From Malacoraja senta (lineage: Eukaryota), in assembly GCA_038087875.1 (NCBI GenBank), contig CM075990.1, positions 1,366,001-1,430,000 on the forward strand: 64,000 nucleotides of DNA, in the 5' to 3' direction. The notes below the pieces were generated by a model, which ran no database searches, was not told the DNA's origin, and saw nothing but the letters and a program-made list of their open reading frames with translations. Shown here in pieces: positions 6,569 to 63,300 of the stretch; the first letter of the stretch is position 1; the number at the start of each line of letters is the position of its first letter. Position numbers and translations under genes: made by a program.

Positions 6569-8432
6569 CGATTCCATCGAACCTCTTCTGCACCTGGTCA
6601 AGCGAAAGCTGCCAATTGTCACATCCAAGCACCCTTCAAGAATCAAGTCAAGATTCAAGATTCAATGGTAGACACATTGTCTCCGCCTGTTCGTGCCCTA
6701 CCGAACTCATTTCCACCTACCTTCACTCCATCCTATCCCCCTTGGTTAAATCCCTCCCTACCTATGTTCAAGACACCTCAGACACTCTCCGTCGTCTCCG
6801 GGCATTGCATTCTCTAGGCCCCCATCCCCTCATCTTCACCATGGACGTCCAATCACTCTACACCTCTATCCCCCACCAGGATGGTCTCAAAGCCTTCCGG
6901 TTCTTCCTAGACCGGAGAATCAACCCATACCCGTCCACTGATACTCTCCTCCGCCTAGCGGAGTTGGTCCTTACCCTCAATAACTTCTCGTTTGACTCCT
7001 CCCATTTCCTCCCAATACAAGGCGTAGCTATGGGCACGCGCATGGGCCCCAGCTATGCCTGCCTATTGGTCAGGTACGTCGAACAATCCTTGTTCGAGGC
7101 GTACCAGGGCCCCATCCCCGACCCCTACCTCCGCTACATGGACGATTGCTTTGGTGCTACCTCCTGCACCCACACACATCTAACTGACTTAATCCGCTTC
7201 ACCGCTAACTTCCATCCGGCACTTAAATACACCTGGACCATTTCCCACACTTCCCTACCATTTCTTGACCTCACTATCTCCATCGCAGGTGATAGACTTC
7301 TGACCGACATCCACTATAAACCCACTGACTCCCATGTCCATCTAGACTACTCTTCTTCCCACCCTGCTTCCTGTAAAGACTCCATCCCCTACTCCCAATT
7401 CCTCCGTCTACGCCGCATCTGCTCCCATGATGAGGTGTTCCACACCAGGGCATCGGACATGTCCTAATTCGCCAGGGAACGGGGGTTCCCCTCCCCTACT
7501 ATAGATGAGGCTTTCACCAGGGTCTCTTCCATACCCCCGTAACACTGCTCTCTCTCCCCATCCCCCCACTCGTAACAAGGGCAGAGTCCCCCGAGTCCTC
7601 ACCTTACACCCCACTAGCCGTCACATTCAACAAATAGTCCTCCATCATTTTCGCCACCTCCAACGTGATCCCACCACTCGCCACATCTTCCCATCTCCCC
7701 CCTGTCTGCTTTCCGCAAAGACCGCTCCCTCCGTAACTCCCTGGTCAATTCTTCCCTTCCCTCCCGCACCACCTCCTTCCCGGGCACTTTCCCTTGCAAC
7801 CGCAAGACATGCTACACTTGTCGCTTTACCTCCCCCCACGACTCCATTCAAGGACCCAGGCAGTCGTTCTCGATGCGACAGAGGTTCACCTGCATCTCAT
7901 CCAACCTCATCTATTGCATCCGCTGCTCTAGATGTCAGCTGATCTACATCGGTGAGACCAAGCATAGGCTTGGCGATCGTTTCGCCGAACACCTCCGCTC
8001 GATCCGCATTAACCAACCTGATCTCCCGGTGGCTCAGCACTTCAACTCACCCTCCCATTCCGAATCCGACCTCTCTGTCCTGGGCCTCCTCCATGGCCAG
8101 AGTGAGCACCACCGGAAATTGGAGGAGCAGCACCTCATATTCCTCTTGGGCATTCTGCACCCTAGCTGCATAAACATTGAATTCTCCAATTTCCGGTAGC
8201 CCCCTTCTCAGCTCTCCCTCTCTCCCTCAGCCCTTGGGCTCCCCCTCTTCCCTTTTCCTTTCTTCTCCCCACCCCAACCCCCCACCCCCCAAACCTACAT
8301 CAGTCTGAAGAAGGGTTTCGGCCCGAAACGCTGCCTATTTCCTTCGCTCCATAGATGCTGCTGCACCCGCTGAATTTCTCCAGCACCTTTGCTACCTTCG
8401 ATTTTCCAGCATCTGCAGTTCATTCTTAAACA
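6569..8432 (+). mobile_element. Penelope-like retroelement, 5'-truncated: RT, GIY-YIG endonuclease and terminal repeat (pLTR)
   Basis: ORF 6565..7467 has TMDVQSLYTSIP, QGVAMGTRMGPSYA, YLRYMDD and LPFLDL; ORF 7873..8199 has NLIYCIRCSRCQLIYIGETK (GIY-YIG); a stop at 7467 interrupts the coding region. Confidence 0.95.
8305..8332 (+). ncRNA. Minimal hammerhead ribozyme-like motif in the Penelope pLTR
   Basis: CTGAAGA-A-GGGT-TTCG-GCCC-GAAAC: CUGANGA box, stem II with a UUCG loop, GAAA box; the cleavage triplet reads GCT in this copy, so it is probably inactive. Confidence 0.65.
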
Positions 8433-11400
8433 TCAAGTCAAGAGAGTTTTATTGTCATGTGTCCCAGAGAGGACAATCAAATTCTTGCTTGCTGCAGCAC
8501 AACAGAATATTGTCGGCATAAATACAGAACAGATCAGTGTGTCTATATACCATAGACCATATATACACACAAAAATAAACAGACAAAATGCAATGTTCAA
8601 GAAGGAACTGCAGATGCTGGAAAATCAAAGGTAGACAATAGTACTGGAGAAACTCAGCGGGTGAGGCAGCATCTATGGAGCGAAGGAAATAGGCAACGTT
8701 TCGGGTGGAAACAATTCTTCAGACTGATGCAGGGTGGGGGGGGGGGGCGGGACGAAGAAAGGAAGAGGAGGAGCCAGAGGGCTGCGGGGGGGGGGGGGGG
8801 GGAGCTGGGAAGGGGAGGAGACAGCAAGGGCTACTCGATATTGGAGAAGTCAATGTTCAAGCCGCTGGGGTGTAGACTGGCCAAGTGGAATATGAGGTGC
8901 TGCTCCTCCAATTTCCGGTGGAAAAAGTGCAATAGGCTGTTATAGTTCAGAGTTTTTTTGAGGTTGTGTTTAATAGTCTGATGGCTGTGGGGAAGTAGCT
9001 GTTCCTGAACCTGGATGTACCAGATTTCAGGCTCCTGTACCTTCTAGCTGATGGCAACGGAGGGATGAGTGTTTGGCCAGGATGGTGTGGGTCCTTGATG
9101 ATGTTGGCAGCCTTTTTGAGGCAGCAATTGCGATAGAACCCCTCGATGGTGGGGAGGCCAGAGCCGTGATGGCCTGGGCAGCGTTTACAACTTTGTGCAG
9201 CCATTTCCGCTCCTGGACGCTCAAGCTGCCGAACCGAGCCATGATATAACCAGTCAGCGTGCTCTCTACTGTGCACCTGTAGAAGTTCGAGAGAGTCTTC
9301 CTTGACATACCGACTCTCCGTAATCATCTCAGGAAGTAATGGCGCTGATGTGCATTCTTTTTAATTGCATCATTGTGCTTGGACCAGGAGAGATCGTCGG
9401 AAATATGCACGTCCAGGAATTTGACATTCTTGACCCTTTCCACCATCGACCCGTTGATATAAACGGGACTGTGGGTCTCTATCCTAAACCTTCCAAAGTC
9501 CACAATCAGTTCCTTGGTTTTGCAGGTGTTGATAGCCAGGTTATTGTGCTGGCACCATTTGGTCAATCGGTCGATCTCACTTCTATACTCTGACTCGTCA
9601 CCATCAGTGATTCGTCCTACAACAGTTGTGTCGTCGTCGAACTTGATGATGGAATTCGCACTATTTCCAGCTACACAGCCATGAGTATAGAGTGAGTACA
9701 TCAGGGGGCTAAGCACGCAGCCTTGAGGTGCTCCCGTGCTGATTGTTATCGAGGATGACACATTTCCACCAATACGGACAGACTGTGGTCTGTGAATGAG
9801 GAAGTCGATGATCCAATTGCAGAGGGATGCGCAGAGACCCAGATCTGCGAGCTTTGTAACTATCTTGGAGGGGATGATGGTATTAAATGCCGAGCTGTAG
9901 TCAATGAATAACAGTCTGAGATGTGAGTTTTGTAGTCCAAGTGGTCCTGAGCGGAGTGGAGAGCCAGTGAGGTCAGATCCACCTGTTGTGGCGGTAAGCT
10001 AACTGCAATGGGTCCAGGTTCTTGTCGAAGTATGAGTTGATATGCGCCATGATCAATCGCTCAAAGCACTTCATCACCACAGACGTTAGTGCCACTGGTC
10101 GATAGTCATAGAGGCACGTCACCTTGCTCTTCTTGGGCACCGGTATTATTGATGCCCTTTTAAAGCAGGTGGGAACCTCAGACCTCAGAAGTGAGAGATG
10201 AAAATGTCCGTAAAAACTCCAGCAGTTGGTCCGCACAGGTTTTTAAAACACGACCGGACATACCATCAGATCCGGCGCTTTCCGAGGGTTCACCCCCCTG
10301 AAGGATTTTCTAACGTCGGCCTCTGTGACTGTGACCGAAACACTATCACGGCGAACAGGGGCTCGGGAAGGTACATCCGTGTTCTCCCTATCAAAGCGTG
10401 CATAAAATGCATTGAGCTCGTTAGAGAGTGGCACTTCGCTGACATTTGAGCTGCCTCCTGATTTTGCCTTGTAGGAGGTGATTGCATTAAAGCCCCGCCA
10501 CATTGTCGAACATCCGTCTCATCCTCCAGCTTGGAGCAGGTCCCTTTTTACCTTTTAGATGGTCTTACCAAGGGCGTAACTGGATTTCTTGTAGACCTCT
10601 GTATCTCCAGACCTGAATGCCCCCCCCCCCCACAACCTCTGCACAGTCCTCACCTCTGGGGGTGCACACTTCAATTGCTGCCTGTAGGCAGGAAGCAGCA
10701 GCACCGCAGTATGGTCGGATTTACCAAAGTGAGGGCGAGTGATGGAGCGATAGGCGTCTTTTATGGTCGTGTAGCAGTGGTCGAGGATGATTGATCCTCT
10801 GGTGCTGCAGGAGACATGTTGGTGGAAGTTTGGGAGCGATTTCTTCAGGTTGGCTTTGTTGAAGTCCCCGGCTGTGGTGGTAAATGCCTCGGGGTAAGCC
10901 GTCTGGTGCTTGTTGACCACGGCGTGCAGCTCCCCCAGTGCCAGATGGACATCAGCTTGGTTGGGATGTAGACCCCGGTCAGGATGATGGAGGGGAATTC
11001 CCTCGGTAGGTAGAAGGGGCGACACTTCACAGCCAGGTGTTCCAGGTGTGAAGATCAGAAAGAACTGCCACGTCTGAGCACCACGCAAAGTTGACCATGA
11101 GGCAGACGCCCCCTCCTTCTCCCTTTCCCAGAAGCCAGTGTACGGTCCACGCGATGGATGGAGAAACCTCCAGGCTGGACTGCTGAGTCTGGGGAGCTAG
11201 GGGTGAGCCATTGCATTTAAATCCTCCACTTTATTCCACAGAGCATTTAAGTCCTCCGCTTTATTTTCAAGGGACTGTACGTTGGTCAGGAGAATGGTAG
11301 AGTGAGGGGTAGGAAGTCCCCTGCGCGTCAGTCTGACCTGAAGTCCTGCCTGTCGGCCACGTTTCCGGACACAATGGAGGCCTCGCCGTTGTTTCCAGGT

Positions 11401-11620: not shown

Positions 11621-13384
11621 GTATTTGAAACAGACCGCGAGACTCAGCGGTGAGAGCCCCATGTCTTTTCAGACACATTCATCCTGGGAGTCACACTTTG
11701 TACGAAGCCCTAGGCTCGAAACGTCACCCATTCCTTCTCTCCAGAGATGCTGCCTGTCCCGCCACGTTACTCCAGCGGTTTGTGTCTATATTCGTTGTAA
11801 ACCAGCATTTGCTGTTCCTTCCTACACACTCCAAGTCTTCACTCCAAGAGTGATGTGTAGCTGGCACCCTTCCGACCCAATTATTTAAACTGTATTTTGA
11901 AACTTCGACAGAGAACTAGCAATTATCAGATTGTATTTGGACTGGTTATTAGAGTGCAGCTTCCTATTGGTAATTAGCGTTTATGAGAATGTAGATATAC
12001 CGTAATTCAGATGCACAAAATTCCAACGGATTAATGTTGACCTTTCGCTGCAGAATGTGAGAGCAGCACTGTGAGTGGGACTCCTTGTGTACAAGTAAAT
12101 AAAGTGTGTCTGGGGAATAAATGCATGTTTTCAGAATCCAGTTGATCGTCGACGTCAAGGTGATTGGTGATATTACTGATATGGTTTCTGTATAATGATT
12201 TAATTGCGCGTGATATTACATTATGATAAAAGGAGCAAGGCCAAGTTGCTGTATCGCAACTTGTCACATTGAGCTCACTAACCGAGAACTCAAACGTCAG
12301 CAATAATCACAATAGTATTCCGTGCACAGTGTGATACGTTTTCCACATTTTTCTCTGAACTGTTTATACTGCAGGTAACGTCTCCAAATGTGGTGTAAGG
12401 ATATACATTCACAGAATGCAATGGAGGAAGTTTGCGGGAACAGTGATATTTCAACATACTGCAGGTGGACAAACAGATGATGACACGCCAGAGAAATTCC
12501 TGCTTTTACTCTCAGTTCAGAAATGTAACTGCGAGACACCTATGAATGGTAAATCTGAGCAGACTAGTTGACGTCTATATGGTCGTTTTTTTTTAACCTG
12601 TTTCAGTGATCAGCAAATCCATTTCTCAGTTGGTTCATTCAGAAACGCATTTCCAAATGCCAAGGATCTCTGAAATCATTCAGCTGCCGTGGTTGACCTG
12701 AACAATCCGGGATCTCTGTGCGTTATTGAAATACTATGACACGGCAACCAAGCAGATTACGCAAACTTGTGCAACGGTGGCAATGTATTGCATTGACTAA
12801 GACCAATAAAAACTTGCTTCGATAATATTGTACACCAATCTGATTCAAATGTGTACAGTCCCTCAAGCCAATTCTACAGCTCGAACTCACACATACTCTC
12901 AAAACGAAACCTCTTTTCAGCCCGTCAACGTTTGTTAAAAGGCATGTTCATTAAACAAAAGAAAGCCGTCTGAATCTATCACATCGGATCGGTACAGAAA
13001 ATCCATATAAAATGATTTCAGCATACAAACCGTGAAAATAAAACATTCGAAATAGAATCCGTTACGGACAACAAATATAGACCCTTAAATTGGCTCTAAG
13101 AACATAAGATTAAAATAAGATGATGATCCGTAATAACACTGGCTCCGAAACGTTAAGATCCTTGAAATAATACTGGTGTTGAAGTAAAGACCTTTCCTCC
13201 AAGTGATAAAACACCTCACACCGACGCCAATTTTACTTCGGGGTCACGTGAGTGACTACGTGAAGAAGGCCGTCACCACGCATGCGCGTCATTACGTCTG
13301 ACGCATTGCGCAACGACTGACTGGCGGGCGCGTTGCTCCTTCCAGCGGTAAGTTTAAAACGCTCAGGTAACTTATCTGAGGTCG

Positions 13385-14677
13385 TTGCTTCCGGTTCGGG
13401 ATTTTTGGTTACCTTTCAGCATCGGACTTCGGGAGAACATGTCCAAGGTAAAGAGGCGGGCGGCGACGAAACCGTCTACGGAAGACCGCGGGTCTGCGGG
13501 CAGCGGGCGGCCGCCAAATTCACCTTCAGGGTCGCAGGCAGAGGAGCCAGCTGCTACAGACCTGGTGCTGCCAGAAAGCGCCTTGGCTAATCCGCGAGGG
13601 AGGAAAGCCATCAGAAAGTCTGTTTGGGCCCTGGACTCAGATGAGTCAGGCCAGGAGGTGGAAATTTCCCCTCCTTCTATGGGCAGTGTTATTGGCAGGC
13701 TGGCCCACATGGAGAACCTGGTGGAGAGGTTGCTCCAAAGAGATATGCTCCATAGGAGGGAGCTATCGGAGCCCGGGGATTACAGAGAACCCGAGGCAGC
13801 GGCACCTGTGTCAGGGCTGCAGAATATCTTCCTCTCTGATGAGGGGAGCGTACGAGGCCAGTGTTATACTGACCCAGAGTACGGAGGCACAGTTGGGCAG
13901 CATGCTTCATGGCATGAGGGGAAAACATCGGATGTACCCCCTATGGCATCCAGATTTGCTATCCCTGCCCTAACAGGGGAGCTATTGGGAGAAGAGCTCG
14001 CCATGAGCATAAATTATCTGGCCTCCCATCAACTCCAAGACCAAACTATGGAGGAAACTACAGCCAAGTATAATACTCCACTGAACTGTGCCTCACTAAG
14101 TGTCCCGGTTGTAAACTAGTCTATCTGGGTACACATTAGAAGGGGCGTCAGAGCCCAAGAGGTTAAAATTCAAAATATTCTCCGGCACCTTGCCTCAGGC
14201 ATCACGGCCTTTGCCAGGTCAGTGGATGGGGTGCCCCTCTCTGATATCCAGTAGGACGCGATGGCATTAATGTGCAATACACATATTGAAATTAATTGCC
14301 TCAGGAAGAATGCCATCCGTCCTGCACTAAACCCAAAATTTGCTGGGCTGTGCAAGCCGGGGAATGTCCAACCCCCAAACCTCCTGTTCGGAAAAGACCT
14401 GCCTGAACAGGTAAAGGAGCTGGATGAGGAGGCTAAAACCGTCGGCCTTATCAAGGCACCTCCCAAGGTATCATCTTTCCGGCGACAGTACCCCTACCCT
14501 CCTCTCCACACCAGACGGTTCGCCGGATATGGTGGACGTGGTTCCGAGCAACAGGCACAGAAGCCTTTTTTAGGGCAGGGCCCAAGCCGGGCCATGTTCA
14601 AGATGCGGGGATGGCGTCCTCCAACAGACCTACCCCCCAGACCTCGGGGGCAGAATCAGAGACCATACCGCCGGTAA
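13385..14677 (+). pseudogene. DIRS gag-like ORF1, broken by stops
   Basis: Same-frame ORFs 13385..14119 and 14261..14677 (PLNCASLSVPVVN, LRKNAIRPALN, LLFGKDL) in the gag position. Confidence 0.7.
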
Positions 14678-14709
14678 CCACTAAGGTAAGTGAGCCTGCG
14701 ATAGATCAG

Positions 14710-19146: not shown

Positions 19147-20303
19147 GGCGGCGCCTAGTGGCTGCGGTTCACCTGCAGTCCGTCTGTCTTTTTTCTTTTT
19201 TTTGGTCTTGTTAGGAGTATGTTTTTGGTTTATTTTTAGTTGTGTATATGTGTGTGTGTGTGTGTGTGCGTGTGTGGGGGGGGGGGGGGTTGGAGGGAGT
19301 GGGGGGTGGAGGGAGGGGTGGGCGGTGAACTTTTTAATCTCTTCCTTTGACGGAGACGCGACCTTTTCCTTGACGTGTCTCCGTTTCGCTGGGGTCTAAC
19401 ATCGTGGAGCTGGCGGCCTCCAATCGGAATCGACCTGAGGGCTCCAGTCGTAGAGCCTGCGGACTTACTTACCATCACGGTAGACAAAAATGCTGGAGAA
19501 ACTCAGCGGGTGAAGCAGCATTTATGGAGCGAAGGCAACGTTTCGGGCCGAAACCCTTCTTCAGACTGATGCAGGTTGGGGGGGGGGGGGGGGGGGAGAA
19601 GAAAGGAAGAGGAGGAGCCAGAGGGCTGAGGGAGAGCTGAGAAGGGGAGGAGACAGCAAGGGCTACCGGAAATTGGAGAAGTCACTGTTCAAGCCGCTGA
19701 GGTGCAGAGTGCCCAAGCGGAATATGAGGTGCTGACCCTCCAATTTCCGATGGTGCTCACCCTGGAAATGGAGGAGGCCCAGCGGAGCTGGCTGACTCGG
19801 AGGCTGTGGTGGCATGGCGGCTGCGGCCCGATTTCGGAACTTCGGAGGCTTCGGCCGCAGGCCCTGCGGAGGGTAAAGTCGGGAGCTCACAGATCCCTGG
19901 TAGGAGACCGGTTTTCTGGAGCTCCCGCAACGGCAACTTCACCCGCCCCGAATCGCGGGGTTTGAATCGCGGTGTCGCTGGGCCTTACATCGCCGGCGCG
20001 ACTTAATCCGCTGCGGGACTTACCAAGGCCCGCCGGGGGCTTTAACATCCTGAGCCTCGATCGCCTCGACGCAGCAGTTTGACTGCCTGACCGTCGGGAG
20101 CAGAACAGAGAACAGAGAAGAAATAAGTATTTTGCCTTCCATCACAGTGAGGAGGTGTTTGGAGATTCACTTTGATGGATGTTTGTGTGGAACTGTGCTA
20201 ACTGTGTGTTGTGTTTATTTTGCTATTATGACTGCAGGGAACGAAATATAGTTCAAACCTTTGTTTGTTTGAATGACAATAAAGCATTCATAATTCTAAT
20301 TCT
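19147..20303 (+). mobile_element. GC-rich non-autonomous retroelement, interrupted by a Penelope pLTR
   Basis: Same architecture as 32355-33100, 38035-38965 and 55038-55895; AATAAA plus an (AATTCT)n tail. Confidence 0.6.
19480..19790 (-). mobile_element. Penelope pLTR fragment with a hammerhead core at 19536-19564
   Basis: Reverse complement of the Penelope 3' end (HRKLEGQHLIFRLG); the minus strand reads CTGAAGAAGGGTTTCGGCCCGAAACGTTG. Confidence 0.85.
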
Positions 20304-22135: not shown

Positions 22136-22136
22136 T

Positions 22137-26512: not shown

Positions 26513-27371
26513 GCACAGCCCAAATAGTGCCTTAGAAGTTCATAAGACATGGGAGCATTATTAGACGATTCGGCCCATCGAGTTGGCTTCGCCATTTGAT
26601 CAAAACTGATTTATTCCCCATCCCCCTTAAACTCATTCCACTGCCTGCTCCCCGTAGCCCTTGCTAATCAAGAACCAGCGCCGGATTTTGATGAAGAGAG
26701 GCCCTAAGCTGTTCCACTTGTGAGGCCCCTCCCAATCCCCCACCCCCCACGACTGGAGGAAGATGGTCCACCAGATTGACACCGATTTGCAGCCGAACGT
26801 GGCCAATGAGATAAGGGGCTGGAAAGCTGCGCTTTTTATTTATTTATTTATTGCCAGTGCTGGTGTCGAGTTATTGGCTTAAAACACTATTATTCTGAAA
26901 TGAAGGGCAAGGAAAATTACTGAAGGGTTGTTTAGAGACTACAGTGCGTTGTGACTGCATATGTAAGAAAGGCCTATGACAGTGTCAAAAATATTATACA
27001 CCTTGCAGGGCTCTCACTTAATTTTTTTCTCTGTTGTCAGCCGGGCAAACGTGGCAGCTTTTTAAGTTGCCAAATGACAATTTAGGTGGTCTTTTAAGAC
27101 GGCTTGCGAGACGCATGCGATAATGTGCTCGGACGAAGTGCATAGTTACCAGTCGGAATTATGCTCAATGAAGCATTCACATATTATTTCTGCTTCAAAT
27201 AAAGTCACAAATTAAACATATTCACCAATCAAGACATGATATATATCACAATGACATGCAGCAAAATTATAATACAGTATCTCAACTCTTTTTACACATT
27301 GCAATGAATGCAATTTCTATTATTTCTTTCCACCTCCAAAGAAAAATGTGGTTGGATTATTCAGCGTATGA

Positions 27372-28548
27372 TCAACCTCGGTGAGACCAAGCGCAGGCTT
27401 GGCGATCGCTACGCACAACACCTCCACTCAGTTCGCAATAACCTACCTGATCTCCCGGTGGCCCAACACTTCAACTCCCCTTCACATTCCGAAACCGACC
27501 TTTCTGTCCTGGGCCTCCTCCATGGCCAGATTGAGACCCACCGCATATTGGAGGAGCAGCACCTCATATTTGCTTGGGTAGTTTACACCCCAGCGGTATG
27601 AACATTGGCTTCTCTAATTTCAGGCAGTCCCTGCTTTCTCCCTCCATTCCCTCCCATTCCCAGCTCTCCCACAGCCCACTGTCTCCGCCTCTTCCTTTGT
27701 TCTTCGTGTCCCCCCCGACATCAATCTGAACAAGGGTCTCGACCCGAAACGTCGTCTATTCCTTCACTCCATGGATGCTGCCTTACCCGCTGATTTTCTC
27801 CAGCGTTTTTGTCTACCAATGGGATGCCACCACTGGCCACATCTTCCCATCTCCTCCCCTGTTGGCTTTCCGTAGAGACCGCTCCCTCCGTATCTCCTTG
27901 GTGAATTCGTCCCTTCCCACCAAAACCACCCCCTCTCCTGGCACTTTCCCTTGCAACCGCAGGAAATGCAACACTTGTCGCTTTACCTCCTCCTTGACTC
28001 CATTCAAGGACCCAAGCAGTCTTTCCAAGTGCGGCAGAGGTTGTTCACCTGCACCTCCTCCAACCTCATCTATTGCATCCACTGCTCCAGGTGTCAGCTG
28101 CTCTACATCGGTGAGACCAAGTGTAGGCTTGGCGATCGCTTCGCCCAACACCTCCGCTCGGTCCGCAATAACCAACCTGATCTCCCGGTCGCTCAGCACT
28201 TCAACTCCGCCTTCCATTCCGAATCCGATCTATCTGTCCTGGGCCTCTTCCATGGCCAGAGTGAGGCCCACTGTAAATTGGAGGAGCAGCACCTCATATT
28301 TCGCTTGGCAGTTTACAGCCCAGCGGTATGAACATTGACTTCTTCAATTTCAGGTAATTCCTGCTTTCTCGTCCCCTTCCCAGCTCTCCCTCAGCCCACT
28401 GTCTCCGCCTCTTCCTTTCTTCTTCCCGTCCCCCTCCCCACCCTCACATCAGTCTGAAGAATGGTCTCGACCCGAAACGTCGCCTATTTCCTTCGCTCCA
28501 TAGATGCTGCCTCACCCGCTGAGTATCTCCAGCATTTTTGTCTACCCA
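27372..28548 (+). mobile_element. Two tandem Penelope 3' ends (GIY-YIG tail plus pLTR)
   Basis: GETKRRLGDRYAQHL and LIYCIHCSRCQLLYIGETK, each followed by a pLTR with a hammerhead-like core (27726 and 28454). Confidence 0.9.
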
Positions 28549-28919: not shown

Positions 28920-29745
<826 letters not shown>

Positions 29746-31112
29746 CCCAGAGGGAGTCTAAAGAAGGGTCTCTACCCGAAACTTCACCCAATGTCTTCTA
29801 TCCAGAGTTGCTGGCTGCTCCATGGAGTTCACCCGCACATTCAAAGCATGGAATAGTCTTCACCCTACCATAGTTACCCAACCAGACGTAACTAAATTTA
29901 AGGCACCTCTTTTCCCCCCAAGAACCCTTTTTTGGTTAAGTCCAAGCCAAGAGTCAAGCGAGATTTATTGTCATGCGGCCCAGATAGGACAATGAAATTC
30001 TTACTTGCTGCAGCACAACAGAATATGAATACATAATACAGAACAGGAGATAAAAGTTCAGTGAGTTTATATACCATAGACCATATATATACACAATCAG
30101 TAAACAGATAAAATGCAATAGGCTGTTATTGTTCAGCCCTCTACCACCTCCAGTTTAAATTCCATTTAGAATATTTATGGAGGACCAGGAATCCAGAACA
30201 AGAGTTACTCCAGGGAGTTACTCCAGATCCTGGGTCAGGGTGTGATTCTGCGTTGGTTTTCAGCGGTCGCGGCGAGGCGGCGGCTGGACGGCAATGGCGG
30301 CCAGATCTCCCACAATTCAATGCGAGAAAGTGCCCAGCGGCGACCAGTTGCCGTGGCAGTGCGTATGCGCAGGGCGGCCGATCATGTGCTGGCCATGGTT
30401 GTGCGCATGTGTAGGGGGGAGGCTGTGCTGGCCGAAGCAGCGCGCATGTGCAAGGCGGCCGGCCGTGCCGGCGGATGAGGATCGGGCGGAGCCCGGCGGC
30501 CCGGGATACGGATGGCGGGCGGAGACGGAGAGCGACAAACAAGCGAGAGAGATAGATTGAGAGGGGGGCCCGCTCAGAGTTGAACGGCAAGGGTCCTGCC
30601 TTGGCCGGAGGCTGCCTAGATTTCGAGGCCCTCGGCTTAAGCCTATGAAGCCTAGTGGTAAATCCGGCTCTGCGAGCCCCCCCCCCCCCCCTAGATCTCG
30701 AAGCCCTAAGCTTAAGCTTGTCACGTTTATACGTAACTCCGGCCCTGTGAAGAACCTATCGATCTCCGCTTCAAAAGTACCCAATGACTCAGCAGATTCA
30801 CCACCACATTACTGAAGAGCAGGCACAAGCCACGAGTGATTGCTCAAGGTAGGCAGGCAGTCGCATTTATTAAAAAACTTAAACCGCGCATGCATAGATT
30901 GTTCTTTCCGTAAAAATAAAACATAAAAATAAAGAGAGTAACAACTCAATTTGACCAAGGTTTCAAAGTCTCCTTTATTCTGAATTACTGAATGGGTGGG
31001 GGTTGAAGGGTGACTGCAGGTGGAAAGATGGTGGGAAAAACCGGAGCACACCGGGACAAGTTGAATCAGTTGTCATCTTATTGAATGACAATACTTGTTC
31101 AAGTGACCAATT

Positions 31113-31757: not shown

Positions 31758-32354
31758 CTCCCCACCCCGGGAAATACGGCATTTAATCACACACAGCACC
31801 AAGAAATGTACTTACCACATTATCGGTACACAAACTCCATTCTTCTTTCTTTGTTTCTTAAAATACGCTTAAGATAATGGAAATCCACATTTGAAAAACC
31901 AGCCAATAAACTAGCGCTGCGCATGCGCAGTAGGATGCTGCGCTTGCGCAGTACTGCAAAAGCAGAATTTCAGCTGCCTTCAGACCTTCGCGTGTTGCAA
32001 GTGCAGCGGTTAAAAGGCACGGAGAATTATGCCTACCTAAGAGATTGATCTCTTAGATGGGATTAATTCTCGCAAGCCTTTACTATTTATATTCAGTGAT
32101 TACCGTTTTATAATTTTAGTCAGGGCAGGCAGAAGAGATGAAGCAAAGATACTGGTCTGATTCTGAAGAAGGATCTCGACCCGAAACGTCGCCTAATCCT
32201 TCTCGCCATAGATGCTGCCTCGCCCGCTGAGTTTCTCCAGCATTTTTGTCTAATTTCGGTGACCAACAGGCAAAGACTAAGACTGTTGCGTAGTTTTGTA
32301 ACATTGTCGGCGCCAACACGTGGAGACAATTGTGTACTGCATTGGTTATATGCA

Positions 32355-34975: not shown

Positions 34976-36462
34976 GACAATTAAATAATCTTGACTCGAC
35001 TCTCTGGAAAAGAATGGAAGGGTACGGACCAAAACGGGTAAATCCTATTGGCGTCGAGGGCGTCACTGTCGACAGGGACATGGTGGGACTTGAAGGCCCG
35101 TATCTGCGGTCAACGTTTCCATATTTATTTGAATCTAATGCCGAGGGCCTGTTCCGAGATGTGCGAGGAAATTACGAAGCATCCATTGCTTTAAAACTGG
35201 TGCTGATAACGGAGGGAGCGATGATGTTATGAACCATTTATTGAAATCCGGTCCCGGGCCGTAAGGGATTGATGGCGAGGCAGTGAGACACGCTACCGAG
35301 GGAGAATTCCCTTCATCGGAGACTCTGCGAAAACCGGGCAATGAAGTTTCGGTGCTAGTGATCTTAAGTCTCTGCATACTGACGATTACAACGCCATTTG
35401 CAGGTACAGGATCAATCAAATCGATTATTTCAAATGCATGCGGATCTTTACATTGAAATCAAAAGAGGTTAAAGATAGTCGAATTTATGCAGGCACTACA
35501 GGGCAGCTGGTAAATCATACCTATGGGTACTGGCGATAGCGCGCTGGGAAGGAATCGCCAGATGTAGAAGGGGTCCGTGGTGAACGTGACAGACAGATAT
35601 TTCAAAGCCGGGGTGCTGAGAGAGATGACAGCAATTATTGTGTGTAGGATGGAACTGCAGATGCTGGTTTACACAGAAGAGAGACACAAAATGCTGGAGC
35701 AACTCAGCGGGCCAGGCAGCATCTCTGAAGAAAATGAATAATCGACATTTCGAATTGAGACCGTTCTTCAGTCTGACATTCAGGGATGTGGGTAAAACGT
35801 GGGGGGGGAGGGTTTGTCCCCCCAGCTCTCAAACAGGTGCCCCCCCCCCTCCGCCGTCCCCCACAGGATTAACTGGTAGATGTGTTTTCTTTACCGTGAA
35901 ATAAATCGACAAAGGCTGAGAGCGCTCAACTCCGTGACAGCTCTGTGGTTGGTGTTTCAAGTATTGTTTTCAGGAGAACCTCCAGTTGAAACAAAGGTTC
36001 ACATGTACCTCCTCGAACCACATTAACTGCATCCGCTGTTCCTAATGTGGGCTCCTTTACATCGGTGAGACCAAACGTAGACTCATAGAAAAACATAGAA
36101 ACATAGAAAAATAGGTGCAGGAACAGGCCATTCGGCCCATCGAGCCAGTACCGTCATTCTATCTGATCATGACTGATCATCTAAAATCAGTATCCCGTTC
36201 CTGCTTTTCCCCCATATCCCTTGATTCCTTTAGCCCAAAGAGCTAAATCTAACTTTTTCTTGAAAAAATCATGTGAATTGGCGCCCACTGCCTTCTGTGG
36301 CAAAGAATTCCACAGGTTCACAACTCTCGAAAACGTTTTTCCTCATCTCACGGGGAGAGAGAGGGAATGCAGGGGTTACCTGAAATTAGAGACATCAATT
36401 ATCATACTTGCTGTGTTCTTAGGAATTACTTTAGATTTATTTAAGATGTTTCATTATTAGAG

Positions 36463-36684: not shown

Positions 36685-37180
36685 CTCTAGATCCTTGACA
36701 TCCTTGGTTACTTCCCACCAGTGTATCAGGATCAAAGGGGCCTCACGGTTCTCCAAGCCAGGATGTCACGATGCAACTCTCTCCGACTTTCAAATATGCA
36801 CTGCGTAAAATGGGAATGGGGGGGGGGGGGGGGGTTAGAGATCACAGGTAGGCAAGTACATTAGATTACGGATGATAGACACAAAAGGCTGGAGTAACTC
36901 AGCGAGACAGGCAGCATCGCTGGAGTGAGGGAATGGTAACGTTTCGGGTTGACACCCTTCTTCAAAGTAGATTAGATTATTTTGGCATTATGTTAGACAC
37001 AATTGTGGACCGAATGGGCCTGTTTCTGAGCTCCTGTACTGTATGTATTATGTTAATTTGGAATGTTCAAGAAAGCGATCAATTCAGCAAAAAGATATTT
37101 GATGCTGCCACCATTTATAAATCAAGATGTGCAAAATACGCTTTGGAATTCCAGTGAAAATTTAGAACGACGAAAACTTT

Positions 37181-37243: not shown

Positions 37244-37786
37244 ACCGTTATGTGTTTTGTGTTGTGAAGCAGCATAAGGTGTGTAGGTCGAAGTTGAGGG
37301 GGGGGGAGGAGAAATGGCTGCGAGTCGAAGAGGAAAGTGGGGGAAAGAGTTGTTTGTGGGTTAGTTACATAAGGTTGCAGAATTTCATGTTAGATTTTCT
37401 TTGACCAAAAACCTGCAACTTTCAGACATTCGCTTCTCACTGTTTGACGTGAGCTCTCGGCTTCTTCCGCGATCCGGTTACTTATTCAAGTACATGCTCG
37501 TGTTGAATTCTTTAATAAAGGGGCGCTTTCATTTTCTAAACACATGTAAGCGGAACTGCGAGTCGTGTTCTGTATTTACTGTCACAAGCAGCAGCGGGAC
37601 TGTGTTCGAGTCACAGAGTCACACTGCACTGAAGACGGTTCCGTTCCCCACTCGCCGATGGAATAGTGTGGCCTCCCTTCTGTCTGGTTTACACCGAGTG
37701 CCGAAGATAGACACAAAAAGCTGGAATAACTCAGCGGCACAGACAACATCTCTGGAGAGAAGGAATTGGTGACTGAATGGGGAAGC

Positions 37787-37814
37787 CTGAAGAAGGGTCT
37801 CGACCCGAAACGTC
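37787..37814 (+). ncRNA. Minimal hammerhead ribozyme core
   Basis: CTGAAGA-A-GGGTC-TC-GACCC-GAAAC-GTC. Confidence 0.65.
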
Positions 37815-38034
37815 ACCAATTCCTTCTCTCCAGAGATACTTCCTGTCCCACTGAGTTACTGCAGCTTTTTGTCTCTATATTCGGTTTAAACCACCATCTA
37901 TAGTTCCTTCTTACACCCAGTGCCGTGGGGTTAGGAGGGAGAGATAGATCAGCCGTGATTGAATGGCCGAGTAGGCTTGATGGGCCAAATGGCTTAATTC
38001 TATTCCTATCCCTTATGAACAGAACGCAGGTTCA

Positions 38035-41085: not shown

Positions 41086-41999
41086 CAAAACATGGGGGGG
41101 GAGGGTTTGTCCCCCCAGCTCTCAAACAGGTGCCCCCCCCCCTCCGCCGTCCCCCACAGGATTAACTGGTAGATGTGTTTTCTTTACCGTGAAATAAATC
41201 GACAAAGGCTGAGAGCGCTCAACTCCGTGACAGCTCTGTGGTTGGTGTTTCAAGTATTGTTTTCAGGAGAACCTCCAGTTGAAACAAAGGTTCACATGTA
41301 CCTCCTCGAACCACATTAACTGCATCCGCTGTTCCTAATGTGGGCTCCTTTACATCGGTGAGACCAAACGTAGACTCATAGAAAAACATAGAAACATAGA
41401 AAAATAGGTGCAGGAACAGGCCATTCGGCCCATCGAGCCAGTACCGTCATTCTATCTGATCATGACTGATCATCTAAAATCAGTATCCCGTTCCTGCTTT
41501 TCCCCCATATCCCTTGATTCCTTTAGCCCAAAGAGCTAAATCTAACTTTTTCTTGAAAAAATCATGTGAATTGGCGCCCACTGCCTTCTGTGGCAAAGAA
41601 TTCCACAGGTTCACAACTCTCGAAAACGTTTTTCCTCATCTCAGTCCAAAATGGCCTACCCCTTATTCTTAACCTGTGACCCCTGGTTCTGGACTCCCCC
41701 AGCATCGGGTAGACTTTTCCTGCATCAACTAGATAAATTAACAGTGTGCGGAGTCCATTGTTGTGCTTCAATAAATGTCATCGCGACGGACGTTCAGGTG
41801 CAAAGTTAGGAATGACTTCGACAATGAATGGGTAGAGGATATATCAGAATTGTTGTAAGGCAATTGTTCCGTCCTCTCACCAGCTCTAGAGCGGTCCTGA
41901 CCTTCCATCTACCTCATTGGAGACTTTCGAACTATCTTTAATCGGACTTTACTGGACGTTATCTACATTAAGTTTAAGCATTAAGTTATACATTTAAGT

Positions 42000-42027
42000 C
42001 TGAAGAAGGGTCACGACCCGAAACGTC
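42000..42027 (+). ncRNA. Minimal hammerhead ribozyme core
   Basis: CTGAAGA-A-GGGTC-AC-GACCC-GAAAC-GTC; flanking GT and AC can start stem I. Confidence 0.65.
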
Positions 42028-42130
42028 ACCCATTCCTTCTCTCCAGAGATGCTGCCTGTCCTGCTGAGTTACTGTAGCATTCTGTTTCTCTCTTCAGTTC
42101 AAACCAGCATCTGCATTTCCTTCCTGCACG

Positions 42131-42590: not shown

Positions 42591-42849
42591 GTTACCTTTA
42601 TCTGCAAACTGTGGACAGCTTGATTACAATCATGTAAATTCCTTTCTCATACAGTATTCTATTGTATCTCGCTGCATGATGTAATGGTAAATTTATGTTA
42701 GCTAAATTAAACTGATATATCATGGCCGTCCGAAGAGGGGGGGGTGGTGCGTTGGGTGCGGTCGCATCCCACCTTTTTTTCACAGAATACGAAATATTCG
42801 CGAGGAAAAAAATGGAGCGCAATCAGCGTTTACCCGTTGGGGGAAGTTG

Positions 42850-46015: not shown

Positions 46016-46619
46016 CTATCTTTCCCTCTCAAACACATTATCTTGCCTTCTCCCCATTACCTCTGACACCCGTATCAATCAAGAATCTATCAATCTCCTC
46101 ATGAAAAATATCCATTGACTAGGCCTCCACTGCTGTATGTGGCAATCAATTCCACAGTTCACCACCCTCTGACTTAAGAAATTCCTGCTCATCTCCTTCC
46201 TAAAGGAATGTCTTTTAATTCTGAGGCTGTGGCCACTGGTCCTAGACTCTCCCACTAGTGGAAACTCCCTCTCCACATCCACTCCATCCAGGTTTTTGCC
46301 AGGCTGGGACAGACTGCAACAGCTTCACACCATATCCTAAGGCTTGTGTCCTGTAACTGCATCACCCAAGCCAGCAGAGACGTTATAGGAGAGGGCAAGC
46401 ACCGTCACAAATTAGCTCATGATGGTTTGGGTAACATTCAGGAATGTCTATGCATGTCACATCATGAATATTACTGAAGAAGGGTCTTGACCCGAAATAT
46501 AATCTATCGTGTGCTTGCCCCTCTTCTCTCTTTCCTCTTCTTTCTATCCTCCTCTCTCTCTCTTCCCCTCTCTCTCCCCCTTCTCCCCCCCTCTCCCTTC
46601 TCTCTCCCTTCTCTCTCTC

Positions 46620-46767: not shown

Positions 46768-48017
46768 GGGAGAGGGAGGAGTGGGGTGGAGAGAAGGGGG
46801 AGAGAGAGAAGGTAGGGAGAGAGAAAGAAGGGAGAGTGGGGGGGAGAGGAGGGGAAGAGAGAGGAGGAGAGAGAATAGAGTGGAGAGAGAGAAGAGGGGA
46901 GAGAGAAGGGAGAGGGAGAGAGAGAGGGGGAGAGAGAGAAGAGGGGAAAGAGAAGGGGGAGACGGGAGCGTGGGGTTCATTTTCCCACACAAGCCATAGG
47001 TGACTGGGCAATCTGAACCCAAGCACCAAGTTGAAAGGAGCCGAAGGTGTGCATCGCTCGGGACAGCCCCCACTCTCCCACGGCCACCCTCCGCGGGCTG
47101 CGGGTCGGGTGGAGCGGAGGTTTGGGACAATGTTCATTTCTTCACAGTGATGTGATGGACGCGGGGGTCTGGACCAATCGCTGACAAGTCCCGCCCCCAG
47201 CAACGTCAAGTCCGTTATTGGACTTTTCTGTTGAGCGGCAGTCAATCCTTTGGCCTGTGGGCGACGCCGCCTTTCGGGTAGGTGGCGTTTCGTCAGAGCG
47301 GCCATTCGGTAAGTTTGCTTTTACGCGACGCAGCTTTTCGGTTCCTTGGGTTTAGGCGTCCCGCCCTTTCGGTTAGTTTGCATTTAGGCGTCCCATCCTT
47401 TCAGTTAGTAGGCGTTTCGTCTTCGGACTCTTTCGGTTTATTGGCGTTTCGGCCTCGCTTCCATTCCGTTCTTTGGCTTCGACTTCTTTGCTTCGGCTTC
47501 TTGTCTGTCGGCGCCACGTCCGGGCACCATAATCTATACCTTTTCTCCAGAGATGCTGCCTGACCCACTGAGTTACTCCAGCACTCTGTGAAACGTCACC
47601 TATCCATGTACTCCACAGATGCTGCCTGACCCACTGAGTTATCCAGCACTTTGTGCCTATTTTCCCTTCACCCATCTGCCCAAACCCACCTTCCCCCTCC
47701 TTTCCTATGTTCCTTTCCACCCATAAACCTCTCTCTGCCTTTACATTTCACCCCTCTTTCAAATCTGCTCTACTTATCTACATGCATTTTTCTTCTTAAC
47801 TTTTTAGTCATAGAATGATGCAGTGTGGAAACAGGCCCTTCAGCCCAACTTGCCCACACCGACCAACATGTCCCATCTACACTAGTCCCACTCACACGGG
47901 TTTGGTCCATATCCATCTAAACCTGTCCTATCTGTACCTGTCTAAATGTCTCTTAAACATTAGGATAGTCCCAGCCTTAACGACCTCCTCTGGCAGCCCT
48001 TTCCATACACCCACCAT

Positions 48018-48325: not shown

Positions 48326-49262
48326 ATGCATCCTTTGTGTGAAAAAGCTACCTCTCAGATTCCTGTTAATTTCTGAAATATTGGTCATAAATTTGATCAA
48401 ATTTATTTGGTCAAAAATGCTCCAAAATAAGGCTCAGAATGCATCAGAGAGCACCTAAAACCCCTGAGCTTCCAGGGCCCTCAAGCAGGCCCTGTACTGC
48501 GGCATCGAGGGACTTCGCGCTTCACATTATTTCACATTAAAAATTTTGTAATCCTGTCATGCCACCCCCCTTTTTGAAAAGCTTCGTGCGGGCCTGTATA
48601 TACATATTGTTTGTGACCAAAGATAGAAACAAAATGCTGGAGTAATTCAGCAGGACTGGCCGCATCTATGGAGAGAAGGAATGGGTGACGATTCGGGTCG
48701 AGACCCTTCTTCAGATCTGCAGAACTTTCCAACACTCATTGTTTGTGACCACATTGCGCGGGATAGTGATGGGCTAGAAAGGTGTCACAGGTGACATTCA
48801 ATGATTGCGCATACTTTCGACGGAACGTATTCGAGGGTCGAAAGACCTCCTCCGATCACTGTGCTTCTGTTTTGTTTTCACAAGTTGTGATCTGGGATTT
48901 GAGTGTCGATCAGACCAATGGGAAAACCTCCTCTACTCCGCCTCTGTCCCAGAATTTGCAACGTTTACAGGGCGTGTGGTTCAGTGACCTGGCCAGTCTT
49001 CATCGGTCAAGGACTGAGGTGGAAGATGGCGAGAATTCTGTTTCTCTTGTCTGGTGAGATCTATATTCCGAAATGACAAAAATGTTCAGCAGCGGGATTA
49101 CCACATCTGATGAACACGGTGCGTTATATTAAAATTGACGCAGAATTACGTGAACGACTATGCCCGGATTTTTGAGTTGGAAGTGAACTGAGTTTCCTCA
49201 TCTCCGTCCAAAATGGCCTCCCCTTATTCTTAAACTGTGATCCCCTTGTTAAGTACTGCAGT

Positions 49263-60357: not shown

Positions 60358-63300
60358 ACCCCAGGCATAGGCGGAAATTGCTTTTAAAACATGGGGAGGG
60401 ACACATTGGAGCCTGACATCAAGGAAAGAGGTCGGCAACCTACGGCCCACGGACCGGAACCGGCCCGCAACCCAAAATCATCCGGCCCGCAGATGTATTT
60501 TTTTCAATTTGTTTTCGCGTCCTGGGAACTGCAGTCAGTCCCAGGGCACGCAGGCGACCTGGGCGCTACAGCCAGACCTGCCAGCCGATATGTGCGCTTC
60601 AGGCATTCCCGAGGCAGGCGAGCCCCTCTGGGCGCAACAACCATTCCCGGGCAGGCGAGCTGACCTGGGCGCAACAGCCAGTCCCACGGCACGCAGGCGA
60701 CCTGGGCGCTAAAGCCAGACAAAGGCCAAGCGAGCTGACTTGGGCGCTTCAACTAGGCATGCCAGTCGACCTACAGCTTGTCGCGGGGCGGGCGAGCCCA
60801 CCAGGGCGCTACAGCCATTCGCGGGGCAAGCGAGCCGACCTGGAACTGGTTGTTGCGCCTAGGGCACAAAACATGGGGAGGGGGGCGGGTTTGTCTCCCC
60901 AGCTCTCAAACAGGTGCCCCCATCCCCCGTCCACCCCCTGATTAACTGGAAGATGTGTTTTCTTTATCGTGAAATAAAACGACAAAGTCTGAGAGCGCTG
61001 AACTCCGTGACAGCTCTGTGGTCGGTGTTTCAAGTATTGTTTTCAGGAGATCCTCCAGGTGAGACAAAGGTTCACATGTACCTCCTCGAACCAGATTAAT
61101 TGCATCCGCTGTTCCTAATGTGGCTCATTTACATCGGTGAGACCAAACGTAGAATCATAGAAAAACATAGAAACATAGAAAAAATAGGTGCAGGAACAGG
61201 CCATTCGGCCCATCGAGCCAGTACCGTCATTCTATCTGATCATGACTGATCATCTAAAATCAGTATCCCGTTCCTGCTTTTCCCCCGTATCCCTTGATTC
61301 CTTTAGCCCAAAGAGCTAAATCTAACTTTGTCTTGAAAAAATCAAGTGAATTGGCTCCCATTGCCTTCTGTGGCAAAGAATTCCACAGGTTCACAACTCT
61401 CTGGGTGAAAACGTTTTTCCTCATCTCAGTTCAAAATGGCCTACCCCTTATTCTTAAACTGTGACCCCTGGTTCTGGACTCCCTCAGCATCGGGTAGATT
61501 TTTCCTGCATCAACTAGATAAATTAATAATGTGCGGAGTCCACTGTTGTGCTTCAATAAATGTCATCGCGACGGACGTTCAGGTGCAAAGTTAGGAATGA
61601 CTTCGACAAGGAATGGGTAGATGATATATCAGAGCTGTTGTAAGGCAACTGGTCGGTCCTCTCACCAGCTCTAGAGCGGTCCTGACCTTCCATCTACCTC
61701 ATTTGAGACCTTCGAACTATCTTTAATCGGACTTTACTGGACGTTATCTACATCAAGTTTAACCATTAAGTTATACGTTTAAGTCTGAAGAAGGTCACGA
61801 CCCGAAACGTCACCCATTCCTTCTCTCCAGAGATGCTGCCTGTCCTGCTGAGTTACTGTAGCATTCTGTGTCTCTCTTCGGTTCAAACCAGCATCTGCAT
61901 TCCCTTCCTGCACGTTACCTTTATCTGCAAACTGCAAACAGCCTGATTACAATCATGTAAAGTCCTTTCTCATACACTCTTCCATTGTATCTCGCTGCAC
62001 GATGTAATGGTAAATTAATGTTAGCTAAATTAAACTGATATATCATGGCCGTCCGAAGAGGGGGGGTGGTGCGTTGGGTGCGGTCGCATCCCACCTTTTT
62101 TTCACAGAATAAGAAATATTCGCGAGGAAATAAATGGAGCGCAATCAGCGTTTACCCGTTGGGGGAAGTTGGGGGAAGCCGGTGACGCACTAGGGACGTA
62201 ACATGACGCTGTCTCTCCGCGCGTGCGCAGTGGGTCCGGGCGGGATCAGGTCAGATCAATTTTCACTCCACACCAATGATACTAGAGCACCCTTTGCTCC
62301 ACACAATCAGAGATCTCCTCGATGCCTCGTGTCTACTCAGGGTAAGTAGTGAAATGTTGCGTTGCGGGAGGGGGAGTCTTTTTCATATCCTGGGTGGCAA
62401 ACTCCGTTTCTCCGTGGGGGGGGGGGCGCTGCGGTGTCTGCCCATCGCCTGGCGTCCACGGAGCGGGTCCGCTGCCGGCGGCCGGCGGACCAATCCGGGG
62501 AGACCGTTCTCCCGTTGCCGGGCGGGATCCGGAACGACTGAATCTGAACCTGTCGGGCCCTCGCCTCCCCCTCCGCCCCCCCCCCCGCTGGGCCCACGCC
62601 ACCTTTTCCCCGCCCACGCCACCCCACACTACCGCAGGGCCCACGCCTTTCTTCCGCCCCCCCGCAGCGGACCCGCGCCACCGCGGACAGTCGCCCCCCC
62701 CGCGGACCCTCGCCTATCGCCTTTCGCCCCCCCCCCCGCGCAGCGGTCCCTCGCATATCGCCCCCCCCGCGGCGCGCACTCGCATCTCGCCCCCTCCCCA
62801 CCCTCGCATCTCCCCCCCCCCACCCGCAGCGGCCCCTCGCATCTAGCCCCCCCAGCAGTGGACCCTCGCATCCTCCCCCAACGCTGCGTGGGAAGTAGGA
62901 AGGTGAAAGAGGGGGGAATGTGAGACAGGGAGGGATGGGAGGGGGAGAGAGAGGGGAAGGAGGGGAGGGGAGAGAGAGAGAGATGGGGAGGGAAAGAGAG
63001 GTGGAGGGCAGAGGGAAACGGGGATTATCTTTAGTGACATTGGAAAATTAAGGTCGGTTTTAGAGCTATTATATTTTCTCCTCTATATGAATAATATTAA
63101 ACAATATCAAATAATATCAAACATTTGGAACTCCTTTCTTTTACTTGATAACAATACTGAAAAATATGAATTCCATAGTTTGTTACATAAATACACATTT
63201 TAATGGGAGCATTATATATAGATGTAACATTTCCATTTTGAGATCAAGGGGGTGGGGGCAAATATGCAAGGGCATATGGAAGGGCATGCAAGAAATTACC

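Follow-up and report, generated by a model that had tools for sequence, protein, structure and literature searches.

We examined a 64,000-nt stretch of genomic DNA from Malacoraja senta (contig CM075990.1, positions 1,366,001 to 1,430,000, assembly GCA_038087875.1; hereafter, the window), in which copies of a minimal hammerhead-ribozyme core are dispersed over both strands. We found that these cores probably belong to 3'-anchored, 5'-truncated insertions of at least two families of Neptune-type Penelope-like elements (PLEs), the hammerhead being part of the pseudo-long terminal repeat (pseudo-LTR) of the autonomous element. In the window, 6 of the 7 C-terminal ends of a GIY-YIG endonuclease are followed by a core, 99-198 nt on, in agreement with an earlier note on this DNA that had named Penelope terminal repeats as the carriers. 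Short copies and copies joined to an endonuclease end have the same two 3' ends, and the earlier claim that the PLE protein mobilizes them was supported.

Results

Hammerhead cores and repeat ends

A fuzzy search of the 64-kb window with a 27-nt motif derived from it identified 18 cores at five or fewer differences, and five shuffled windows gave 0 matches at six or fewer. Similarly, a generic core pattern matched 15 sites in the window, compared with a mean of 0.00 in 100 dinucleotide shuffles. The hammerhead motifs in the window are real, and none is due to chance. The earlier note had counted 19 dispersed cores: 18 of these are present, and the exception is site 11700, which has no CUGANGA box and consists only of GAAACGTC plus the downstream repeat. 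The ten other positions given for the + strand are exact at C3; those given for the - strand are correct as sites but not as C3, the numbers being the low ends of the motif. The C3 positions of the - strand cores are 8722, 19564, 35771, 36965, 48714, 53406, 54100 and 57133.

A profile search (nhmmer, E < 1e-5) found 27 repeat ends in the window, 18 with a core and nine without one (3517, 11713, 29099, 37773, 45451, 47529, 47590, 54927 and 57221); eight of the core-less ends come in addition to the previously noted 11700 site. Because four segmental-duplicate pairs of cores (35771/53406, 36965/54100, 37787/54941 and 42000/61785) sit in a duplicated block, in which 33.6-44.8 kb recurs at 51.5-64 kb with 88-96% identity, the 18 cores represent 14 insertions. 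The density in the window is 14 insertions per ~55 kb of unique sequence; the high copy number that had been claimed was supported. The short units had been put at 100-300 bp; this was an overestimate, as they measure about 35-135 bp.

The carrier element

Six of the 14 insertions are joined to a GIY-YIG endonuclease end. Five of these six belong to family A, and in them the core lies 99-111 nt downstream; in a second family (core 53406) the distance is 198 nt. The element at 6667-8433 contains a reverse transcriptase (RT) piece, a C-x4-C-x2-C linker, a GIY-YIG domain, a pyrimidine-rich untranslated region (UTR) and a core. Its Pfam matches to RVT_1 and GIY-YIG both fall below the curated cut-off, and tblastn searches of the window with PLE proteins gave E values down to 1e-169. 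The window is rich in repeats and of animal type; the best named matches of the RT are proteins of Chiloscyllium punctatum (bamboo shark) and Rhincodon typus (whale shark), at 64-71%, which points to a cartilaginous fish. In an alignment of 12 proteins, linker residues C43, C48 and C51 and CCHH residues C86, H108 and H124 are invariant, and the first CCHH cysteine is present in the query sequence. The 57133 copy is preceded by a diverged PLE piece that runs into it and has ~70% identity to family A. The order RT, Cys-rich linker and C-terminal GIY-YIG is the layout of Neptune or Nematis (PMC8557442), and vertebrate PLEs are described as Neptune and Poseidon only (bioRxiv 10.64898/2026.07.22.740005).

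We also noted an ATG ~50 nt after C3 in the long copies (segment +47 to +135). In the 8722 and 42000 types the reading frame that it begins continues through the tail, although several copies have stops in it. Since the pseudo-LTRs of other PLEs contain the first codons, this ATG may be the start of the PLE open reading frame (ORF).

3' ends, tail types and insertion marks

Long and short copies alike end at ~+91-97 or ~+128-135 from C3, that is, ~35-40 nt apart; an optional tail of 30-40 nt has been described as the stretch between two internal RT start sites (PMC11167929). In the window, 27726 and 28454 form a partial tandem, 37773 is an inverted copy placed head-to-head with 37787, and target repeats of 14-15 bp are present at 48714 and 54100; target duplications are clear in 2 of the 16 insertions examined (20 copies). 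Partial tandems, inverted copies, target repeats and tails are all marks of PLEs (PMC8557442, PMC3846280). The B tail of four short copies scores 54-68 against the endonuclease-joined copy 35771, compared with 34-42 against family A. With 3' ends and tail type common to short and endonuclease-joined copies, the separate SINE-like (short interspersed nuclear element) or retrozyme-like family proposed earlier was not supported as the principal interpretation. The accompanying claim that a tRNA head is lacking was correct: no tRNA lies beside any short copy, the nearest being ~215 nt upstream of 54100 and outside its target duplication, and no SINE head (tRNA, 5S or 7SL) was found.

All 14 insertions extend across the cleavage site, which indicates that their templates were uncleaved RNA. 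An origin of the core-less copies from cleaved RNA was considered separately and found no support: these copies start at ~+10 to +33, two of them include the GUC, and no pile-up is listed at 28481/28482.

A sharp 5' boundary at the core

Relative to C3, 7 of the 14 insertions start within -3 to +1, one starts at -20 and six at -199 or beyond; none starts between -21 and -198. The five bases preceding the core are TCAGT, which resembles an initiator. An initiator-like TCACT has been noted in a rotifer pseudo-LTR, and the Penelope element of Drosophila virilis has an internal promoter (PMC2377424).

Our preferred cause of a start at the core is run-off of the RT at the 5' end of the RNA, or arrest there. 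Run-off at an RNA 5' end set by TCAGT is the cause that we would tentatively place first. Arrest of the RT at the hammerhead or C-rich tract is a serious possibility, and arrest at the C-rich tract or fold is as simple an account as run-off. Some other cause is unlikely, and a 3' splice site, formed by the pyrimidine tract and the CAG just before the core, is less probable again. Should the A of TCAGT be the first base of the RNA, cDNA initiated at the 5' copy of the RT start signal would run off after 95 or 135 nt and yield just such copies, and stem I could have at most 3 bp. Weighing against run-off from TCAGT, the D. virilis start lies ~120 nt upstream of the hammerhead; in that element an intron begins 46 nt after the start and is 75 nt long, with the hammerhead at its 3' end, and it ends at helix I (PMC4209133). 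Hints of splicing in the window are a GT after the last codons in 5 of 7 ends, together with the pyrimidine tract and CAG before the core. No AG was found at the putative 3' splice position in 20 endonuclease-joined metagenome loci, and there was no read-supported skip of the UTR among the 15 of 337 joints listed.

Anatomy and folding of the core

The CUGANGA and GAAA boxes, ACGU and H17 are all intact in 8 of the 18 cores. The earlier description of the motif as a type I hammerhead of the minimal kind, whose stem III is the palindrome ACGU, was supported; the palindrome itself occurs in 14 of 18. Four cores also keep a 4-bp stem II, and two (19564 and 42000) keep, in addition, a 2-bp stem I, consistent with the decay of several copies noted earlier. 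Nearly all genomic copies of the hammerhead are probably inactive. Stem II is most suitably drawn with 4 bp and a UUCG, CUCG or CACG loop and is closed by G10.1-C11.1, and an extra A follows A9 in all 18 cores. Stem I has 2 bp in 8 of the 18 cores and is shorter in the others. The two variants of stem II that had been reported do exist, but the change between them is one-sided (U-G vs U-A) rather than compensatory.

The check with covariance models suggested in the earlier note was run with Rfam, and the hammerhead models gave no match in the window at E values up to 5 or in two 301-nt pieces at values up to 10. The hammerhead fold of the monomer lies 7-8 kcal/mol above the minimum, with a pairing probability of 0.00 for stem I. 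In dimer folds, the arrangement with stem II and ACGU reached -13 kcal/mol vs -22 to -31 kcal/mol for others, a comparison that carries no information because nearest-neighbour models ignore the core. A longer stem I, formed via CAUC/GAUG, was not supported: it is in the minimum fold of 8305 alone. The sole close pair of cores on the same strand, 27726/28454, is damaged in both members. RNA 5' ends just after the GUC, which the earlier note had suggested looking for, did not show up as a pile-up of read ends at the cleavage site (28481/28482) in the one poly(A) library used, and such a library has little power to reveal short or circular RNA. By analogy with other PLE hammerheads, cleavage would require a dimer (according to a review; weak in PMC4209133) and assistance by protein (PMC11167929); 8 of 9 Xenopus dimers failed to cleave (bioRxiv 10.64898/2026.07.22.740005).

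Conservation and decay

Differences occupy 7 of 140 cells in the core boxes, compared with 54 of 618 for non-diagnostic downstream columns (p = 0.17; 14 independent copies), and this comparison favours the core, the copies having been selected by motif. All downstream columns together differ at 127 of 767 cells (p = 0.00015 vs the core boxes), a gap that arises from subfamily-diagnostic columns, none of which lies in a core box; CpG columns differ at 26 of 138. This is in keeping with master elements that are under selection and copies that decay neutrally. On a tree that omitted 46474 (too short) and the duplicates, endonuclease-joined copies were clustered (2 changes; 0 of 500 shuffles), short copies were not (5 changes; 139 of 500 shuffles as low), and only 1 of 16 inner branches was well supported.

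Relatives in metagenomes and RNA reads

Scanning metagenome contigs with a pattern built from the motif, we obtained 126 matches in 121 loci; the contigs appear to be animal DNA. A PLE protein lies within 1.5 kb upstream of 27 of the 126 matches, 25 of them in sense, and for 99 of the 126 the contig extends 300 nt or more upstream. Stem I, which was outside the search pattern, pairs over a mean of 3.2 bp (82 distinct motifs) vs 1.7 bp when permuted (0 of 2000), with the qualification that related copies are not independent. Because stem I pairs beyond permutation in these relatives, the motif class is a genuine, covarying hammerhead. The window version has the shortest stem I compared with these relatives. 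Viral contigs gave 104 pattern matches, none confirmed as a PLE relative, and no match to the motif.

A long-range helix downstream of the hammerhead is conserved in 33 of the metagenome loci (L005-L120). The sequence G[AG]CAC occurs ~21 nt past the core in 82 of 121 matches with enough flank (background 4%) and pairs with GTG[TC]C in the tail, ~69 nt past the core. Matched pairs number 20+11 and mismatched pairs 1+1, counts for which a p-value is overstated, the copies being related. The window analogue is AGATGCTG/CAGCATCT. We regard this helix as a candidate for the signal at which RT starts in these PLEs.

We mapped four sequencing runs of related organisms to 27820-28600 at 80% identity; contig depths summed over these runs do not measure copy number. 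In raw RNA run X22, depth was 957 at the endonuclease end, 303-450 over the UTR and 5,285-5,788 over the hammerhead segment, where the two strands contributed 3,025 vs 2,763 reads. X22 reads over the PLE coding part (27820-28330) are skewed ~2:1 to one strand, and those over the hammerhead segment are ~1:1. Among the top six loose ends of each run, those before -3 and -2 comprise 414 and 416 reads whose agreement is near-random (0.37 and 0.33), and the one before -5 (420 reads) is another family's UTR. No position in X22 had many read starts or ends, a weak test for short or circular RNA with a poly(A) library.

Table 1. Hammerhead-bearing and related PLE copies in the window.
Feature	Position	Strand	Basis
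5'-truncated PLE, Neptune-type by its motifs, family A	6667..8433	+	Pfam, tblastn, sequence
RT part of the 6667..8433 element; frame ends in a stop	6670-7464	+	
Cys-rich linker and GIY-YIG of the 6667..8433 element, followed by ~108-nt pyrimidine-rich UTR	7669-8199	+	
Core (U16.1 to C) of the 6667..8433 element; long 3' end with tail	8305-8332	+	
Family A end on last endonuclease codons; core 8695-8722 with disrupted stem II; long 3' end	8593..8921	-	
Family A end on endonuclease codons; core 19537-19564 with complete boxes, stem II of 4 bp, stem I of 2 bp and N17=U; short 3' end	19479..19782	-	
Family A piece, upstream half of partial tandem; core 27726, G8 to C; short 3' end	27341..27817	+	
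Family A linker, GIY-YIG and UTR, downstream half of partial tandem; core 28454-28481, G10.1 to U; short 3' end	27816..28546	+	
End of second PLE family: core 53379-53406 with altered A9, preceded by final endonuclease codons and ~198-nt UTR; internally deleted B-type tail	53293..53631	-	
Segmental duplicate of 53406 with long B-type tail; a later insertion interrupts it 24 nt upstream of core	35641..35795	-	
Compound B-type end: decayed core 57106-57133, ~20 nt of UTR, core-less end 57151-57221, diverged PLE linker piece 57244-57495	57046..57495	-	
Short A-like copy (core 32163), start about -1; short 3' end	32162..32253	+	
Decayed short copy, start -3	29755..29830	+	
Short B copy, core 37787, start 0; long 3' end	37697..37917	+	
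Inverted core-less copy, head-to-head before the 37787 unit	37697-37773	-	
Segmental duplicate of the 37787 unit, truncated at +57	54850..54998	+	
Short B copy, core 42000 with complete boxes, stem II of 4 bp, stem I of 2 bp and N17=C, start -3; long 3' end	41997..42129	+	
Segmental duplicate of 42000; stem II minus one G	61782..61913	+	
Decayed core only, start 0	46474..46507	+	
Short B copy, start about -1; short 3' end; flanked by 14-bp exact direct repeat, with 23-nt filler at 5' side	48620..48715	-	
Short B copy, start 0/+1; short 3' end; AT-rich 15-bp target duplication, 14/15 matching	54004..54099	-	
Segmental duplicate of 54100, same target duplication	36869..36964	-	
Core-less B copy (noted earlier as 11700); long 3' end	11713..11828	+	
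Core-less decayed B copy, absent from the earlier note; long 3' end	29099..29214	+	
Core-less repeat end	3517..3575	+	
Two core-less repeat ends, head to tail	47529..47670	+	
Family A endonuclease end and partial UTR, interrupted; no hammerhead after it	51135..51385	+	

Other features of the window

The segmental duplication (33615-44819 and 51530-64000; 11-12 kb, 88-96% identity) contains tRNA-Met and tRNA-Asp genes, with tRNA-Phe nearby (genes at 39190, 49262, 50869, 54315 and 56121), and is probably a tRNA gene cluster unit. A 557-bp segment with a PLE endonuclease piece inside is present in two copies that are 99.8% identical and a third at 93% (35794-36350, 41087-41643 and 60880-61428); it is a recent insertion or conversion that separates the 35771 copy from its UTR. 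On the + strand, 13358-17480 holds a run of ORFs that by eye resembles a decayed DIRS-type retrotransposon, with RT/RNase H pieces and a tyrosine-recombinase-like ORF at 16527-17480; the only domain match, to Phage_int_SAM_4, is weak and below the cut-off. An ORF for a rhodopsin-family G protein-coupled receptor (7tm_1, E 4.6e-10) at 25506-26626 is apparently broken, and a 95% identical copy lies at 4055-5176. Decayed RT-bearing pieces of long interspersed nuclear elements, CR1-like in type, occupy 3-843, 21191-22134, 33615-35095 and 59044-60266.

Discussion

Our results suggest a model in which the PLE RT/GIY-YIG protein would nick AT-rich DNA and start cDNA at one of two internal RNA sites, ~92-97 or ~128-135 nt past C3, a start mechanism demonstrated for the Anolis element PAc (PMC11167929). 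The cDNA would copy uncleaved RNA across the cleavage site, and the RT would then continue into the ORF (6/14) or halt at the 5' edge of the hammerhead (7/14), after which the inserted copies would decay neutrally. By analogy with published PLE hammerheads, the ribozyme of the master RNA would most probably cut after GUC or GUU, and only as a dimer via the ACGU palindrome, with protein help.

Several observations weigh against reading the cores as truncated Neptune-type insertions. The window has no full-length PLE (an ORF between two pseudo-LTRs), and the putative Neptune assignment comes from motifs that do not separate Nematis. Plain random truncation would not yield 7 of 14 starts in a 5-nt interval. 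Of 76 starts in related metagenome families, 10 fall within 8 nt, 26 are 9-30 nt away and 40 are more distant than 30 nt, and the window differs from them in start clustering (p = 0.004, with boundary methods that differ). Endonuclease-joined insertions make up 5 of 6 of type A and 1 of 8 of the remainder (p = 0.026). X22 depth rises ~sixfold from the endonuclease to the hammerhead segment, a step that is an upper bound because the ~70%-identical ORF of the second family would mostly miss the 80% cut. Both the start clustering of short copies and the 5/6 vs 1/8 skew could be explained equally well by a hot spot of truncation and by a short lineage that propagates itself. Such a lineage would be a non-autonomous family of the B-type short copies, in which a solo pseudo-LTR beginning at TCAGT keeps an internal promoter and the RT start signal, is transcribed and reverse-copied anew by the PLE protein, and behaves much like a SINE. 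It would explain the fixed 5' start (7/14 at -3 to +1) and the 414 and 416 X22 reads that join mixed flanks at -3 and -2, respectively, and it suits short copies that are mostly of one sequence type and endonuclease-joined copies that cluster on the tree; the internal promoter of D. virilis Penelope (PMC2377424) and the movement of solo pseudo-LTRs in trans (PMC3846280) are precedents. We nonetheless consider it unlikely. A B tail occurs on an endonuclease-joined copy, the 57133 copy ends a diverged PLE piece, the short copy 32163 groups with type A, and short copies are unclustered on the tree. Furthermore, X22 reads over the hammerhead segment are about equal on both strands, as in passive read-through, and in D. 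virilis transcription begins far 5' of the hammerhead.

The copies could instead be monomers of a non-LTR retrozyme, cut by the hammerhead, circularized and reinserted from circular RNA. PLE-derived retrozymes with dispersed monomers are described from vertebrates, among them one cartilaginous fish in which the mean unit is 363 bp (bioRxiv 10.64898/2026.07.22.740005), and single contigs show small joints that go back inside the repeat end. However, none of 50 Tandem Repeats Finder rows is a tandem array with a core, the copies start 28 nt before the cleavage site and end at PLE RT start sites, and the motif is minimal rather than the canonical type I of retrozymes (PMC7229834); nor is there a place where many reads begin or end, although this is weak for poly(A) libraries. 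The check for circular RNA reads proposed in the earlier note gave no read-supported joint for circular or unit-length RNA among those listed, in libraries whose poly(A) selection would lose circles. We regard this origin as very improbable. Almost negligible is the prospect of a chance look-alike, a repeat that happens to hold CTGA-GA and GAAA. The failure of the Rfam models, a fold 7-8 kcal/mol above the minimum, and a stem I of at most 2 bp with probability 0.00 would agree with it, but the motif fits the consensus CUGANGAH-G...C-GAAA-palindrome-UH exactly (PMC4209133 Fig. S3), lies in a pseudo-LTR and has a covarying stem I in related families.

Truncated PLE insertions, our favored explanation, agree with Cervera and de la Pena (2014; PMC4209133), who identified solo minimal hammerheads as truncated PLEs and whose consensus and 56 examples fit the window motif base for base. 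The hammerheads described there share with the window motif the core boxes, an additional base between 9 and 10.1, the G10.1-C11.1 pair, a palindrome at 15.2-16.2 and the pseudo-LTR location, and they too are mostly single dispersed motifs ascribed to truncated PLEs. The accessible part of supplement file 2 of that paper has 0 matches for Callorhinchus, Leucoraja, shark or skate. Stem I here, of 2 bp with a U-A or U-G first pair, is at the short extreme of the published 2-6 bp, as in Drosophila, Culex and Oikopleura, which also have 2 bp; the density in the window, if genome-wide, would be far above the 4,000-9,000 per genome given in the same paper. Neptune PLEs (PMC8557442) are alike in RT, linker, GIY-YIG with CCHH, 5' truncation, partial tandems, a 5' inverted copy and a 30-40-bp tail. 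The Poseidon element PAc of Anolis (Frangieh et al. 2024, PMC11167929) similarly has two internal RT starts downstream of the hammerhead, AT-rich targets, an uncleaved RNA template in vitro and raised coverage at the pseudo-LTR end. In contrast, PAc belongs to another clade, its ORF starts at stem II whereas the putative first ATG here is ~50 nt after C3, and its ribozyme was assayed and is protein-assisted.

Non-LTR retrozymes (Cervera 2020, PMC7229834; Li et al. 2026) resemble the window copies in being short, non-coding, PLE-related dispersed monomers with a type I hammerhead. They are defined by tandem hammerhead units and circular RNA, neither of which was found in the window or in the reads listed, and since no tandem units with a hammerhead occur, the copies fall outside that definition. 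The non-autonomous Penelope elements of heliconiine butterflies (PMC6685494) are, by description, likewise short, non-coding, PLE-derived and abundant. In the open papers searched (Repbase, Dfam and the supplements of the 2026 preprint excluded), we found no description from sharks, skates or rays beyond the one cartilaginous fish in the 2026 preprint, and no account of non-autonomous PLEs specific to this repeat.

These findings extend the link between PLE pseudo-LTRs and minimal hammerheads to a lineage that we did not find covered in the literature searched, a modest advance. Of greater weight is the sharp 5' boundary, which bears on where PLE RNA starts and on what PLE hammerheads do. If the boundary is the transcription start, then a great many fossil copies mark where the first cDNA began and where it ended, and the ribozyme would lie at the very 5' terminus of the RNA, so that the cap would be lost on cleavage. 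It is doubtful, though conceivable, that cartilaginous fish harbor a 95-135-nt non-autonomous PLE derivative whose RNA starts on the first bases of a hammerhead with a 2-bp stem I, born by run-off, self-propagating by way of an internal promoter and present in hundreds of thousands of copies; if true, their genomes would be among the richest known stores of hammerheads and would hold a natural map of PLE transcription start. The copies themselves indicate insertion in vivo from uncleaved RNA, in agreement with the in vitro result for Anolis.

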